The position numbers and the translations under genes were made by a program. Positions 20,997-30,212 of a DNA stretch of 64,000 nt are shown in pieces. The stretch covers positions 6,176,001-6,240,000 of the forward strand of contig JBKAGP010000001.1 of NCBI GenBank assembly GCA_046290465.1. The letters run 5' to 3'. The notes under the pieces are model-generated. The model searched no databases and had not been told where the DNA came from. It saw only the letters and a program-made list of their open reading frames with translations. Numbering within the stretch: the stretch's first letter is position 1; every line of letters starts with the position of its first letter. The stretch comes from Planctomycetota bacterium (GTDB taxonomy: Bacteria > Planctomycetota > UBA1135 > UBA2386).

Positions 20997-21782
20997 ATGG
21001 TAGGTAAACCCGCTGCCCGTGATGCCGCAGCCTCGCGCGAGCGAGCCAGCAACGGCCTCACCACCGAGCACCTGCTCGAACGCTACCGACTGCGTCGCTC
21101 CCGAAAGGTGCTCGACCAGGTCGTCGAACGCCACCGCGACCTCGTCGAGACGATGGCGCGCAACCTCGCTTCCCGGCTGCCTCGCAGCGTCGACGCGCAG
21201 GACCTCGTGCACGCCGGGATGTGGGGCATGATGCAGGCGATCGCGTCGTACGAACCCGATCGCTGCGACTCGTTCCTCGCGTTCATGCGGATCCGCGTGC
21301 GCGGCGCGATGCTCGACGAGCTGCGCCACATGGACTTCCTGCCGCGCCTGTTCCGCCGCCGCGTGCGCGAGCGCGACCAGGCGCGCGCGCGTCTGCGCAT
21401 GCAGCTCGAGCGCGAGCCGACCGACAGCGAACTGGCCGACGCGCTCGGCATCACCGAGCAGGCGCTGCTGCGCTGTCCGGCGAGCAAGGTGCTGCGTTCG
21501 GTGCACTTCCGCGAGGGCGACAGCGACGAGGACCAGTTCGACCACCTCGAGGACGACGCGATCGAGTCGCCGATCGAGGCGATCACCCGCCAGGAACTGC
21601 TCGAGCTGGTGCGCAAGCACCTCGACCCGGTCGAGTGGAAGGTGCTCAAGTTGCACTACCTCGACGGCCTGACCGGCCGCCAGGTCGCGCAGCGCATGCG
21701 CCTGTCGGCGTCGCGGATCTGCCAGATCCACGTGCAGGTGCTCGACCGACTCAAGCAGGAGCTGACGGCGCGCGCCGTCTGA
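20997..21782 (+). CDS. FliA/WhiG-family (sigma-28-like) RNA polymerase sigma factor
   Basis: LPRSVDAQDLVHAG, RVRGAMLDELRHMDFLPR, REPTDSELADALG, LSASRICQIH. Confidence 0.9.
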   Translation: MVGKPAARDAAASRERASNGLTTEHLLERYRLRRSRKVLDQVVERHRDLVETMARNLASRLPRSVDAQDLVHAGMWGMMQAIASYEPDRCDSFLAFMRIRVRGAMLDELRHMDFLPRLFRRRVRERDQARARLRMQLEREPTDSELADALGITEQALLRCPASKVLRSVHFREGDSDEDQFDHLEDDAIESPIEAITRQELLELVRKHLDPVEWKVLKLHYLDGLTGRQVAQRMRLSASRICQIHVQVLDRLKQELTARAV

Positions 21783-21789
21783 TCGACGC

Positions 21790-23073
21790 ATGGTGGACAA
21801 GACGCCGTGCCCGGGTGCCGGCGCCCCGGAGTTCCATCTCCGCGACGGCGCGCTGTGGTGTGAGGACGTCGCCGTCGCCGAGCTGGCCGAGCGGTTCGGC
21901 ACGCCGCTCTACGTGATGAGCGCCGCCGCGGTGCGCGCGCGGGTCGACCGCGTGCGCCAGGCGTTCGGCGACGACGCCAGGATCTGCTACGCGGTCAAGG
22001 CCAACTCCAACCTCAACCTGCTGCAGCTGCTGCACCGACTGGGCTGCGGCTTCGACCTGGTCAGCGGCGGCGAACTCGAACGGCTGCGCGCCGCCGGCCT
22101 GCCCTCGGACGAGGCGGTGTTCGCCGGGGTCGGCAAGCAGGGCTGGGAGATCGACGCGGCGGTCGCCGCGGGGCTGCTGTTCTTCAACGTCGAGTCGCCG
22201 CACGAGCTGCCGCTGCTGGCCGCCGCCGGCGCAGCGGCGGGCGCGCCGGTGCGCGTCGCGCTGCGTCTCAACCCGGACGTCGACGCCAACACGCACGCCT
22301 ACATCAGCACCGGCAAGGACGAGAACAAGTTCGGCGTCGCGCTCGACCGCGCCGGCGACCTGGTCGCCGCCATCCACGCCGATCCGTGGCTCGAGCTGGT
22401 CGGCTACCACGTGCACCTCGGCAGCCAGCTGCGCGGCACCAACCCGTATCTCGAGGCGCTCGATCGCGTGCTGCAGTTCGTCGACGACGACCCGCGTCGC
22501 GGCGACGGCGTGCGCTACTACGACCTCGGCGGCGGCTTCGGCATCGCGTACGGCGAAGGCGCCGAACTCGACGTGCGCGCGGTCGCCGACGCGCTGCTGC
22601 CGAAGCTGCGCGAGCGCGGCTGGACGCCGGTGGTCGAGCCGGGCCGCTACCTGGTCGGCGACGCCGGCGCGCTGGTCACGTCGGTGCTCGGCGAAAAGGC
22701 CCAGGGCCGCGCCAACTTCCTGCTGGTCGACGCGGCGATGAACGACCTGATGCGGCCGGCGCTCTACCAGGCCGAACACCCGATCGTGCCGGTGCGTCGC
22801 GGCGCCGGCGAGCCGACCCGGATGGTCGACGTGGTCGGTCCGGTCTGCGAGACCGGCGACTTCCTCGGCAAGCAGCGGCAGCTGCCGCGCTGCGAACGGG
22901 GCGACCTGCTGGCGGTGTTGGCGGCGGGCGCGTACGGTGCCAGCATGGCGTCCAACTACAACACGCGTCCGCGGCCGGCCGAAGTGCTGGTCGACGGGGC
23001 CTCCGCCCGGTTGATCCGGCGGCGCGAGTCGTATCGGCGCATGTTCGAGGACGAACTCGAGGCCAACCCATGA
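21790..23073 (+). CDS. lysA: Diaminopimelate decarboxylase
   Basis: FGTPLYV, YAVKANSN, VSGGEL, HLGSQ, DLGGGFG, EPGR, GPVCETGD, GAYGASMASNYN. Confidence 0.96.
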   Translation: MVDKTPCPGAGAPEFHLRDGALWCEDVAVAELAERFGTPLYVMSAAAVRARVDRVRQAFGDDARICYAVKANSNLNLLQLLHRLGCGFDLVSGGELERLRAAGLPSDEAVFAGVGKQGWEIDAAVAAGLLFFNVESPHELPLLAAAGAAAGAPVRVALRLNPDVDANTHAYISTGKDENKFGVALDRAGDLVAAIHADPWLELVGYHVHLGSQLRGTNPYLEALDRVLQFVDDDPRRGDGVRYYDLGGGFGIAYGEGAELDVRAVADALLPKLRERGWTPVVEPGRYLVGDAGALVTSVLGEKAQGRANFLLVDAAMNDLMRPALYQAEHPIVPVRRGAGEPTRMVDVVGPVCETGDFLGKQRQLPRCERGDLLAVLAAGAYGASMASNYNTRPRPAEVLVDGASARLIRRRESYRRMFEDELEANP

Positions 23074-23234
23074 TCCGACCCAGACGTTCGCTCGCGCGCC
23101 TGTCGGCGCTGCTGCTGGTGTTCGCCGCCGCGACGTCGTGCAGCTTCATCGCCGACGAGTTCGTCAAGCTCGACACGCCGGGGCCGGTCGCACAGCCGCC
23201 GGCCCCGCCGAGTGCGCTGCAAGACCGCCCCTGA
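23070..23234 (+). CDS. Small putative lipoprotein (54 aa)
   Basis: ATGA overlap with lysA stop; MIRPRRSLARLSALLLVFAAATSC signal; TGATG overlap with next gene. Confidence 0.65.
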   Translation: MIRPRRSLARLSALLLVFAAATSCSFIADEFVKLDTPGPVAQPPAPPSALQDRP

Positions 23235-23590
23235 TGGTCACAGACGGGCTGCGACACCTGCTCGAGCGCGGCGACGGCATGGGGGAGTACGACGACGGCC
23301 GCAGCGGGTACGCCGAGCATCCGGTCTGCGGCGATCGCATGGAGCTGAGCGTGCAGCGGGACGGCGAGACCGTGCGCGGCGTGCGCTGGCGCGCCAGCGG
23401 CTGCCCTGCGTCGATGGCGCTGGCGGCGCTGTGCAGCGAGGTGCTGGTCGACGTGCCGGTCGCCGAGGTCGCCCGCGTGCTGCGCGCCGGCATCGCGGCG
23501 CGCGGCGGGCTGAAGCGGCACGAGCAGCACGCCGAGAAGATGGCGCTGCGTGCCCTCGAGCAGGCGCTGGGCGAGGCCCCGGGCAGCTGA
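23234..23590 (+). CDS. IscU/SufU (NifU_N) family scaffold-like protein
   Basis: HPVCGDRM and ASGCPASMA motifs; third conserved Cys not seen. Confidence 0.8.
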
Positions 23591-23591
23591 G

Positions 23592-25178
23592 ATGGCGCGC
23601 TGGACCGACTTCCTGCAGCGGTTGCGCGGCGACGCGCACGACGGCGAACGGCAGCGCTGGCTGGCGATCCTCGGGTTGAACCGCCAGCTCGCGCTCGCCG
23701 ACGGCCGCTCGGCGGTGTTGACCGTGCTCGTCGACGAGGCGGTGCGCCTGTTCGGCGCCGAGCGCGGCTTCCTGATCGCGCGCCGCGGCGACGACGGCTT
23801 CACCGTCGAGGTCGCGCGCAGCCTCGACCGCGAGCCGGTCGCCAACCCCGAGCGCAAGGTCTCGTCGACGATCGTCGAGCGGGTGCTCGGCAACGGCGAG
23901 GGCCTGTTCAGCGAGGATGCCCAGGACGACGCCTTGACCGCATCTCAGAGCGTCGCCGACCTGCGGCTGCGGTCGGTGCTGTGCATGCCGTTGCGCGTCG
24001 GCGACCGCGTGCTCGGCGTGCTCTACCTCGACCACCGCTTCCAGTCGGGCGCGTTCGGTGAGAAGGACCTGCCGTGGCTGATGGCGTTCGCCGACCAGGG
24101 CGCGATCGTGCTGCACCTGCACGGCCTGCTGGCCGAGAACCGCGCCCAGGCGGCGCAGCTGGCCGAACAGAACGCCGGCCTGCGTGCGACCGTCGCCGCG
24201 CAGGCGCGCGCGCTCGCCGACGAGGCCCCGGTGCCCGGTCGTGACGAACTGCGCCACCCGATGCCCGGCATGGTTGGCGACTCGCCGGCGCTGCTGCGCG
24301 CGCTGCACGTGCTCGACCGCGTCGCCGATACCGACCTCGGCGTGCTGCTGACCGGCGAGAGCGGCACCGGCAAGGAGGTCGCGGCGCGCGCGCTGCACCA
24401 GGCCAGCGCGCGGCGGCAGGGGCAGTTCGTCGGCGTCAACGCGGCGGCGATCACCGGAGAGCTGCTGGCGAGCGAGCTGTTCGGCCACACCAAGGGGGCG
24501 TTCACCGGCGCCGACCGCGAACGGCCGGGGCTGATGCGGCGCGCGGCCGGCGGCACGCTGTTCCTCGACGAGGTGACCGAGATGGACCTCGAACTGCAGG
24601 CCAAGCTGCTGCGCGCGCTCGAGGAGCGGCGCGTGCGTCCGGTCGGCAGCGACCGCGAGCAGGCCATCGACGTGCGCGTGATCGCCGCCAGCAACCGCGA
24701 TCCGCGCGCCGCGATCGCCGACGGCCGGCTGCGCGAGGACCTCTACTTCCGCCTGGCGGTCGTCACCGTGCACCTGCCGCCGCTGCGCGAGCGCGGCGAG
24801 GACCTGGTGGCGCTGACCCGCAGCTTCGTCGACGGCTTCGCGCGCGAGCAGGGCGTGCCCGCGCCCGACCTGCACGACGACTTCCTCGCGGCGCTGCGCG
24901 CACGGTCGTGGCCGGGCAACGTGCGCCAGCTCCGCAACGAACTGCAGCGGGTCTGGGCGCTCGGCGACGGCGGGCCGCTGCGGCCCGAATGGCTGACCCC
25001 GGAGGAGGCCGGGCCCGGTCCGGCCGACGGCGTGCCGACCGACCTCGCCGGGCTCGAGCAGTGGGCGATCGACCGTGCGCTCGAGCAGGCCGGCGGCAAC
25101 AAGGCCGAGGCGGCGCGGCTGCTCGGCATCGGCCGCCGCACCCTCTACGACAAGCTCAAGGGGCGCGCGCAGCCCTGA
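23592..25178 (+). CDS. GAF-domain sigma54-dependent Fis-family enhancer-binding protein
   Basis: GAF ([17 protein letters not shown]), [35 protein letters not shown]-terminal [20 protein letters not shown]. Confidence 0.95.
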
Positions 25179-25202: not shown

Positions 25203-25283
25203 TGGGCGATCGCCGCACGCCGCGGTCGGTCGCCCGGATCTTGTAACCCATGGTATGAAGGGCTCTTGAAGAAATGTCTCAGG

Positions 25284-25315: not shown

Positions 25316-27028
25316 ATGACGCGTCTCTCGCTCGCAATCCTGATGGCATCCGCTGGCCTGCTCGGTCAGACCGATGTCGACGGTGCGCCCGAGCTGAAGG
25401 ACTGCGTCGAACGGCCCTACGCCTACATCCGCCTCGACGCCTCGCCCCCTCGAAGCCGCAACGCCAACCGGCGCGACCACGCCGCGGTGCGCAAGCTGCT
25501 GTCGAACCCTTCGCTCGACCTGCTGTTCACCGGCGATCTGCAGGCGACCGGCACGGGCGAGGCGGCCGGCAGCAACACCGGCAGCGAAGCCGGCTCGAGC
25601 CGCGCGCTGTCGATGGTGCGCGGCATGCTGAGCAAGGGTGCCAGCCAGATCGAACTGGCGCTGACCGGCATCGTCGGCCGCGCCGGCAAGCCGCTGCTGG
25701 TGCTGCGGGCCCGGCTCGAGCACGACCAGGCGGATCGTCTGCGGCTGGTGCTCGAGCAGACCGCCGCGCTGGCGACCCCGAACCGCAAGCTCGGTGGCCA
25801 CCAGACGTTCACGTTGCGCGGCGGCCGCGGCCAGGGTGCCGGTGACGTCGTCGAGATGGCCATGGTCGGCGACGACTTCGTGGTCGGCAACGACACCTCG
25901 GCGATGCGCGAGGTGCTCGAGCCGCAGCCCGCGACGACGTCGGCGGGTGCGCAGCGCCAGGTGCTGTCGGCCAACAAGCAGTTCCAGCAGCTGCGCCAGC
26001 GCCTCGAGGTGCCGCCGGGCTCGCTGCTCGCCTTCGGCGACTGGAAGCGGCTCGGCCGGCGGCTGCAGTCGTCGATGACCGGCGCGCACGCCGAACTGCT
26101 CGCGTCCAGCGGGCTCGGCTCGGCGCGCTCGGTGATGATGACGATCGCCCCGGCATCCAAGGAACAGTCCAAGAAGGCGGACGAGGCGTTCGCCGCGACG
26201 CTGCTGCTCGACTTCGAGTTCGACGCGTCCGAGCGCGGCGGCGGCATCGACGGCTGGTTCGCCGCGACCCAGCCGGTGCCAGCCCGTCAGCTGATGAAGG
26301 AGCTGCCGCGCACCGGTCTCGGCGGCCTGGTGCTGTCGGTCGACCTGCGTGCGGTCGCGTCGCACTCGCGGCGCACGTCGCACCTCTACTGGGACCTGCG
26401 CGAGGCGTTCAGCAACTTCGGCCTCGACTTCCAGCGCAACGTGCTCGGTCGCTTGGTCTCACGCGGGACCGTGCAGCTGCACTTCGGCAAGCGGCACTTC
26501 GGCGCGTCCGGCGATGCGTTCGCCGCGGTGTCCCCGGTCTACGCCGTGCGGGCCAAGAACCGGCGCGCCGCGCAGGACCTGTTCAGCGACATGCGGCGCG
26601 TCGTCGAGGAGACCGAGATCGGCAAGCTGGTCGAGTTCACCGACGAGGCCGGCAAGCGCAAGGTCGAACTGCTGCGGCTGACCGGACGCGCCAACGCGTT
26701 CTCGGCGTTCTTGATGGTGCACGACGACACGCTGCTGCTCACCCGCGAGCAGGAGACGCTGGCGCAGCTGTTCGAAGAGCTGAAGCGTCCGCGCAGCCGC
26801 AACCGTCGCGACCAGCTGGCCAGCAACGCGATCAAGTCCATCGGCGGCGAGGACATCGCCGGCCTGTTCGACGTCGACCTCTCGCCGTTGTTCGAACGAA
26901 TCATGGCTGCGCTCGGAACCTCCGACGTAGACCTGTCGACGCTCCCCCGGCGTCATGTCGGTTACCTCGCGACCGATCGCTCCGAAGACGGTGCGGTCGT
27001 GCGCGTCCGGGTGTTGTCCTCGAGATGA
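25316..27028 (+). CDS. Exported hypothetical protein (DUF3352-like)
   Basis: ATG at 25316 downstream of the sigma54 promoter gives signal-like MTRLSLAILMASAGLLGQ; strong coding bias. Confidence 0.75.
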   Translation: MTRLSLAILMASAGLLGQTDVDGAPELKDCVERPYAYIRLDASPPRSRNANRRDHAAVRKLLSNPSLDLLFTGDLQATGTGEAAGSNTGSEAGSSRALSMVRGMLSKGASQIELALTGIVGRAGKPLLVLRARLEHDQADRLRLVLEQTAALATPNRKLGGHQTFTLRGGRGQGAGDVVEMAMVGDDFVVGNDTSAMREVLEPQPATTSAGAQRQVLSANKQFQQLRQRLEVPPGSLLAFGDWKRLGRRLQSSMTGAHAELLASSGLGSARSVMMTIAPASKEQSKKADEAFAATLLLDFEFDASERGGGIDGWFAATQPVPARQLMKELPRTGLGGLVLSVDLRAVASHSRRTSHLYWDLREAFSNFGLDFQRNVLGRLVSRGTVQLHFGKRHFGASGDAFAAVSPVYAVRAKNRRAAQDLFSDMRRVVEETEIGKLVEFTDEAGKRKVELLRLTGRANAFSAFLMVHDDTLLLTREQETLAQLFEELKRPRSRNRRDQLASNAIKSIGGEDIAGLFDVDLSPLFERIMAALGTSDVDLSTLPRRHVGYLATDRSEDGAVVRVRVLSSR

Positions 27029-27141
27029 TTGCACCTGCTGTGTAACGCAGCGCGATCCACTCGTAGCAACACCTGCTCTTTCCCAACTCCAAACAACAGC
27101 CTTCGGTGAGGACCGGCGCGCTCGCGCGCCGTCGCCTTGCC

Positions 27142-27355
27142 GCGGATGCATGGGTGTCGAAACAGCCTCCAGCCGGCCCGAAATACTTGGGGCAGGCAGG
27201 GTCGGACGGAGACTTCCGCGTGTGTTGCGCGGGACATGCATCCGCATCTTCTTCGGGCGCATGGGTCGTTTGTCCCGCGCCGTCATTCCGAATACTTGGG
27301 GCAGGCAGGAATGACGGGGCGGAATGCGTGGTGTCACGCGGCGATCCATGCGCCC
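27142..27355 (+). ncRNA. Candidate tandem structured RNA (two multi-stem units sharing a conserved loop)
   Basis: Closing stems 27142-27152/27235-27245 and 27255-27268/27342-27355; each holds a stem capped by GA(A)ATACTTGGGGCAGGCA and a 3' hairpin. Confidence 0.55.
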
Positions 27356-27395
27356 TCATTTTGTTTATGGGCATGCTTGGGTCTACAACCGGGGC

Positions 27396-30212
<2,817 letters not shown>

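Follow-up and report, generated by a model that had tools for sequence, protein, structure and literature searches.

This locus raises the question of whether two similar structured units lying directly ahead of lon form a regulatory leader of that gene or an RNA in its own right, and what the loop that they share might do. Direct inspection of the window, i.e. the whole analysed stretch of 64,000 nucleotides of planctomycete DNA, verified every stem and loop that a first-pass annotation had placed there, all on the + strand. Unit 1 (27142..27245) consists of a closing stem P1 (27142-27152/27235-27245), a long P2 hairpin whose core (27173-27179/27199-27205) is capped by a loop at 27180-27198, and a short P3 hairpin (27216-27232). 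Unit 2 (27255..27355) folds in the same way, with P1 at 27255-27268/27342-27355, the P2 core at 27280-27289/27308-27317, the loop at 27290-27307 and P3 at 27326-27339. Both loops carry the core GGGGCAGGC, delimited by position-wise conservation in aligned units at 27189..27197 (copy 1) and 27298..27306 (copy 2, also recovered by motif search). The array is preceded by a 5' hairpin P0 (27105..27141, +), seen in the minimum free energy fold and in the genus alignment and varying among homologues. The units are separated by a pyrimidine-rich single-stranded linker (27246..27254, +), a possible processing site judging by its sequence; comparable linkers flank the hairpins of homologues. A U-rich tail 3' of the last stem (27359..27366, +) probably marks the 3' end of the RNA, as most homologues have a run of T or pyrimidines after their last unit, and a terminator scan made no call at this tail.

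Folding of the + strand gave z-scores of −4.8 for unit 1 and −5.8 for unit 2, with 0/200 shuffles as good, while the − strand folded about equally well (−4.1 and −6.1), so that folding energy alone does not give the strand. A pseudoknot between the large loop and the P3 loop found no support in the aligned units, where the P3 loop varies or is absent and the core is fixed. The initial impression that the element lies outside known families was borne out by searches of Rfam 15, which returned no match over 27142-27355 at E ≤ 5 and none at E ≤ 1 in eight homologous loci. The scattered copies that the same annotation had named as the mark of a mobile repeat are absent, with loop motif searches and covariance models locating just two copies, at a single site, in the 6.6-Mb genome from which the window derives.

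With a 15-nt pattern, the element was located at the corresponding site in 11 of 14 genomes of the genus, and within one Planctomycetota family a two-unit covariance model gave matches in 60 of 91 genomes, our own included. When hairpin-only forms were added, in a count anchored on the loop core, at least one module was present in 76/91 genomes, always at one locus per genome in our motif and model searches, with one copy in 14 genomes, two in 47, three in 12 and four in 3. The other family genomes comprise ten with contig ends or missing lon and five in which inspection showed the block to be absent from the site and the NifU-like gene to abut lon or glpK directly, so that the RNA is dispensable. 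In three genomes of the same genus (G007, locus L058; G005, L059; G003, L063), unit 1 is still structured without the loop core and unit 2 is intact.

Covariation, the check that had been proposed for these homologues, was present in each alignment that we built. Two-sided changes were found at 17/39 pairs of unit 2 (11 distinct sequences) and at 11/36 pairs of unit 1 (10 sequences) after plain MAFFT alignment, values that 0/500 shuffles reached in either case. Among 107 model-aligned units (105 distinct), 36/39 pairs showed two-sided change and 93% of cells were paired; again 0/500 shuffles reached the observed value, and slid controls gave 29-52%. This larger alignment is fitted to the model, and the MAFFT-only alignments of units 1 and 2 agree with it. 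With the core nearly invariant at the same time, the claim that stems differing in sequence yet keeping their pairing reflect selection on structure holds. The assignment to the + strand, drawn originally from the G-U pairs of two units, is likewise supported by 431 G-U versus 75 A-C cells across the 105 distinct homologous units.

Each position of the core GGGGCAGGC(A) is retained in 104-107 of the 107 aligned units, with free variation in the 5' half of the loop and in the P2 stem. More distant genera show GC-rich hairpin arrays with the core GGGGCAGGC and pyrimidine-rich linkers between the hairpins, without closing stem or P3, and at some loci a terminal variant hairpin retains GGGCAGGC or GGACAGGC in its loop. 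As read from these alignments, the conserved module is the P2 hairpin bearing the 9-nt core in one to four copies and not the whole three-way fold, P1 and P3 being confined to some genera. Of the near-identical 18-19-nt loop and common fold noted initially, the P2 hairpin with its 9-nt core is conserved; the 5' half of the loop, P1 and P3 are not general.

Beyond the family, the model matched 0/108 genomes of other families (25 candidates scored per genome), and the tandem core pattern occurred in 4/248 genomes in the class (control pattern 8/339) and in 4/297 in the phylum (control pattern 9/301), none of it exceeding the controls; a homologue with a changed loop would escape these searches. 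In another family of the class (G335, L252:1480-1600), a G-rich loop resembling ours sits on a 5-bp hairpin that is repeated across an assembly gap; this single look-alike from outside the family is probably due to chance. A scan of a genome collection yielded seven model matches among 80 tested of at least 119 loci, all labelled Planctomycetota, and was otherwise mostly chance, while three true members (L311, L334, L344) were recovered from metagenomes among 80 of at least 116 loci, the rest being simple or REP-like repeats. Viral contigs contained 18 exact 16-mer matches, none of which had the flanking stems on inspection. Going by these searches, the RNA is so far confined to one Planctomycetota family.

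The downstream gene (27396..30212, +) was confirmed as lon, encoding endopeptidase La, by a TIGR00763 match over cut-off and by Pfam Lon domains, and its ATG at 27396 follows the end of unit 2 by 40 nt, as annotated. The encoded protein is extended at its N-terminus by an acidic stretch of ~80-100 aa with many repeats, and its C-terminal tail, rich in Lys, Ala and Pro, weakly matches histone-H1-like protein models. A −10-like TACAAC (27384..27389, +) lies 6 nt before the ATG and is a probable leaderless promoter of lon itself. Boxes of this type were found 5-10 nt before an in-frame lon ATG in 40/54 homologous loci and were retained even where glpK intervenes and lon lies 1.7 kb away from the RNA. 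In our genome, a −10-like hexamer at distance 6 precedes 53/1704 likely starts (3.1%) versus 0.43% at internal ATGs, which suggests that leaderless promoters occur in the lineage; such a hexamer also precedes glpK in most homologues.

These data bear directly on the first proposal for the locus, namely that the tandem units are a riboswitch or a protein-controlled leader 5' of lon. It is true that 45 of the 76 loci have lon as the gene that follows and that two contigs from RNA libraries run from the element into lon, an arrangement that read-through or DNA carry-over could explain. However, a glpK-like gene comes after the RNA at 21 loci (19 recognised by pattern and 2 by inspection) and other genes at 8 (3 of them convergent), with 2 loci left unassigned, and no expression platform is conserved. 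The complementary 10-mers at 27227-27236 and 27271-27280, suggested to form a switch, do exist, but the helix is neither stable nor conserved: it costs 22.9 kcal/mol and has a pairing probability of ~0, and the corresponding duplex outdoes shuffled sequences in just 7/42 two-unit loci. Given the lack of a constant downstream gene and the −10-like box of lon itself, we concluded that the RNA is not a lon leader, a reading that we now consider highly improbable.

Upstream, the array is neighboured by a gene for a 570-aa protein (25316..27028, +; 584 aa if an earlier ATG at 25274 is used), which is probably exported and matched no Pfam or NCBIfam model. DUF3352 occurs in 20-23% of the members of its Atlas look-alikes, and its predicted fold is DUF3352-like. 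This gene is a usual but dispensable neighbour of the RNA; when 13 genomes lacking it were checked by tblastn, a NifU-like gene preceded the RNA in 11 and a sigma-54 regulator in one. Further upstream lies a syntenic block (window positions 20997-25178) encoding a FliA/WhiG-like sigma factor, a lysA-like pyridoxal-dependent decarboxylase, a NifU/SufU-like protein and a GAF sigma-54 activator; the latter gene and the DUF3352-like gene have been lost in several genomes.

Two features that the first-pass annotation did not describe lie between this gene and the array. A promoter-like bipartite motif, GTGTA-N17-CGTA (27040..27067, +), is conserved across homologous loci, the form GTGTR-N16/17-CGTW occurring just before boxA in 33/67 loci versus 0 and 0 in control windows, with the strict motif lacking in 34/67. 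It differs from the tRNA promoters of the same genome (TTG..N17..TAnnnT) and is possibly read by an alternative sigma factor; a search for its regulon in our genome gave no coherent gene set. As the end of the upstream coding sequence runs into the motif in many homologues, part of the conservation of the motif may be protein-level; the motif is nevertheless kept in loci without that gene. The second feature is a boxA-like antitermination element (27075..27087, +) that follows the pattern found before the 16S and 23S genes of this genome and fits the consensus for Escherichia coli and Bacillus subtilis boxA in the accessible part of the published account (PMC13753749). Of 67 homologous loci, 50 have such an element upstream of the first module, versus 3 and 2 in control windows (17/67 lack a strict match), and a domain search found NusB-domain genes in our genome. 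Further boxA-like matches away from rRNA genes (C1 4018199 (+), 4023907 (−), 3662846 (−) and 1641326 (−)) may, from their sequence, lead other non-coding or antiterminated transcripts.

RNA-library contigs (Logan) cover the element in three of four runs at depth 2-10, where DNA carry-over is possible, and leave it without cover in the fourth (X11); they are compatible with transcription, and no strand, start, end or level can be read from contigs. Taken together, the locus holds a structured RNA family that is apparently undescribed, with a fold, an invariant core, a variable copy number and independence from both neighbours. That it is an independent non-coding RNA gene and not a lon switch is, in our judgement, very probable. 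Such a gene would be transcribed from its own promoter as an RNA of ~280-300 nt, its boxA would recruit NusB-S10 and thereby shield the untranslated transcript from Rho, and the transcript would end at the U-rich tail; cutting at the pyrimidine linkers into ~105-nt units may follow. The repeated loops would then serve as multivalent sites for titrating or scaffolding a protein that recognises a specific sequence in single-stranded RNA, in the manner of CsrB/RsmZ and for another protein. A 9-mer that stays fixed and exposed while its stems are interchangeable suggests a site where a protein or an RNA binds, and one to four copies together with hairpin-only forms are as expected of modular binding sites.

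Provided that the RNA is an independent gene, we lean slightly towards a protein as the bound partner, since the loop complement is not enriched at gene starts and Hfq (PF17209) was not found in our genome, which favours protein binding over pairing with mRNAs. The joint reading, a stand-alone RNA whose loops titrate or scaffold a protein, comes to just under an even chance, and it is this part of the initial suggestions, the protein sponge with a repeated loop, that we prefer, the lon leader and the switch having fallen away. CsrA was not found either, with 0 matches to PF02599 in our genome (94% complete) and the control giving a signal in 3/14. The genome encodes five RRM-domain proteins, which are candidate partners. 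The loop sequence itself is not enriched in the 5' regions of genes (0 in upstream 50-nt windows of our genome); a CsrA-like regulon would predict such sites, and a broad one is therefore not evident.

The loops might instead act as base-pairing seeds, as in cuckoo/CcsR-like RNAs, with GGGGCAGGC pairing to a C-rich stretch, GCCUGCCCC, of one conserved target RNA or a few of them. A 9-mer that is invariant and exposed has the size of a seed, 70 exact complements occur in the genome, and the architecture resembles that of the cuckoo family, which the accessible part of PMC4615179 describes as carrying a single loop motif on two to four hairpins whose stems vary. Against seeds of this kind, the lack of enrichment at gene starts persisted after a Markov control; CCTGCCCC within the first 45 coding nucleotides, counted on crude gene calls, occurred 17 times versus 9.8-11.9 expected, an excess that was gone in a wider window. 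The apparent lack of Hfq also speaks against such pairing, and there is no perfect complement in the rRNA, tmRNA, SRP RNA, RNase P RNA or tRNAs of this genome. Within rRNA, the most favourable site is a 10-bp wobble match in 23S rRNA; it is altered opposite the A of the loop in two of four other family genomes in which the loop is unchanged. On balance, we regard seed pairing as rather unlikely. The same break in 2/4 genomes led us to reject a guide for this 23S helix, a site present in just 12/339 genomes, and pairing with tRNA, tmRNA, SRP RNA or RNase P RNA was dismissed for want of a convincing site. We also rejected a stand-in for a housekeeping RNA, as 5S, SRP RNA, RNase P RNA, tmRNA and tRNAs for all amino acids were located elsewhere in the genome. 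A 6S RNA was not found there; 6S RNA forms a long rod with a central bubble, a shape absent from the planctomycete RNA.

If the array were instead the 3' trailer of the upstream operon, it would be a set of hairpins with a stabilising or terminator-like role, which boxA would shield downstream of the stop codon and which would yield no independent product. The boxA does lie ~5-50 nt from the upstream stop codon in many homologues, and a pyrimidine run follows each hairpin; however, the RNA and the promoter-like motif outlast loss of the upstream gene, the genome has a single such locus, and an invariant loop is not required of terminators or of hairpins that stabilise, all of which leaves this explanation improbable. 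Very unlikely, in our estimate, is a mimic of the 23S rRNA P-loop, in which each apical G-GGG-C would capture tRNA CCA ends or act as a decoy for a P-loop-reading enzyme or factor. The loop shares UGGGGC with a 23S segment of this genome that we take to be the P-loop, most units are compatible with a YYUG-GGG-CAGG mini-stem capped by a GGG triloop (one column being C in 50 and U in 48 opposite an invariant G), and the RNA is led by an rRNA-type boxA. Yet only six letters are shared, the invariant AGGC is without rRNA counterpart, and the mini-stem is impossible in hairpin-only members with AA before the G run. The two 23S copies of the genome differ in the P-loop-like segment (C1:51432-51460 (+) and ~3300229 (−)), with GGGT versus the usual GGGG and differing bases just upstream, for which an assembly error is the likeliest cause. 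A palindrome acting at the DNA level, or a REP or mobile repeat, is extremely unlikely. A REP-like tandem repeat with the same letters occurs in unrelated genomes and metagenome contigs, but there the letters form a stem arm, here a loop, and our element combines two copies at one syntenic site with a one-strand G-U bias and diverged stems. In the unrelated bacteria (L310, L320, L321, L325, L326, L470), this repeat contains GGGGCAGGCA as one stem arm. A near-identical dispersed intergenic repeat of >50 nt, present in our genome at ~25 sites (e.g. C1:813384, 1401176, 2202622 and 4325005), is unrelated to the RNA.

Returning to the preferred reading of a stand-alone RNA with protein-binding loops, what we describe is a well-supported RNA family absent from Rfam, from a genome in which CsrA, Hfq and 6S RNA were not found and from a phylum whose RNA regulation is, to our knowledge, little studied. 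Its invariant 9-nt loop offers a ready bait for an RNA reader, with a loop mutant as the obvious control, and if boxA antitermination operates here, its range would come to include a small regulatory RNA. It is a tentative possibility that planctomycetes have a new protein-titration system that depends on neither CsrA nor Hfq. Very unlikely, too, is an RNA made like rRNA under boxA/Nus antitermination whose G-rich loops act on the translation apparatus as P-loop mimics; we know of no such riboregulator in any bacterium. The significance of the RNA is bounded by its range of one bacterial family. Outside subscription papers and bioRxiv supplements, which might list the motif, we found no description of this RNA in the literature.

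Among known systems, the accessible parts of two reports offer structural parallels. Tandem structured copies are described for the pan and glnA motifs, which are cis-regulatory leaders of related genes (PMC2864571); our element shares the tandem arrangement and, unlike these, has no constant downstream gene. That report, as far as its text and supplements were accessible, does not describe the RNA; the 9-mer occurs in it at least three times, with unrelated flanks at the two places inspected, and its Rhodopirellula-1 is a different motif. BoxA elements are reported ahead of non-coding transcripts such as rrn operons and CRISPR arrays, and of suhB (accessible part of PMC13753749), and our RNA, untranslated and structured, resembles these in that a boxA-like element immediately precedes it. 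In contrast to rrn operons and CRISPR arrays, boxA here leads a small hairpin array, and constant loops on varying stems are the reverse of a CRISPR array.

The closest match in build is the cuckoo family (RSs0680/CcsR, alpha-r14), for which the accessible part of PMC4615179 describes two to four adjacent hairpins with one invariant 9-nt loop motif and freely varying stems. A variable number of modules (here 1-4 in 76 genomes), a conserved genomic context and a probable alternative-sigma promoter are shared as well (PMC4615179, same part). According to that account, however, the cuckoo loop is the anti-Shine-Dalgarno CCUCCUCCC, whereas the planctomycete loop is the G-rich GGGGCAGGC, whose complement is not CCUCCUCCC either, and cuckoo RNAs are Hfq-bound and belong to Alphaproteobacteria, whereas our RNA belongs to Planctomycetota with no Hfq found. 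Further differences are the boxA leader, the single locus and, in some planctomycete genera, the setting of each hairpin in a three-way fold with a sequence-conserved closing stem.

CsrB, CsrC, RsmY and RsmZ are protein-titrating small RNAs encoded by stand-alone genes and built from repeated hairpins with one loop motif, and the planctomycete RNA shares the repeated hairpins, the single loop motif and the stand-alone gene. Unlike in CsrB, RsmY and RsmZ, its loop is without GGA, CsrA was not found, and its hairpins are fewer and much longer. That a cuckoo/CsrB-like build is here combined with a different loop and led by boxA suggests an RNA reader not yet described. The modular multi-hairpin build of small RNAs is already known; new here are the loop sequence and the boxA leader. 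The RNA is built like the cuckoo family and probably works like CsrB-type RNAs, but its loop and the partners not found in its genome set it apart from both groups.
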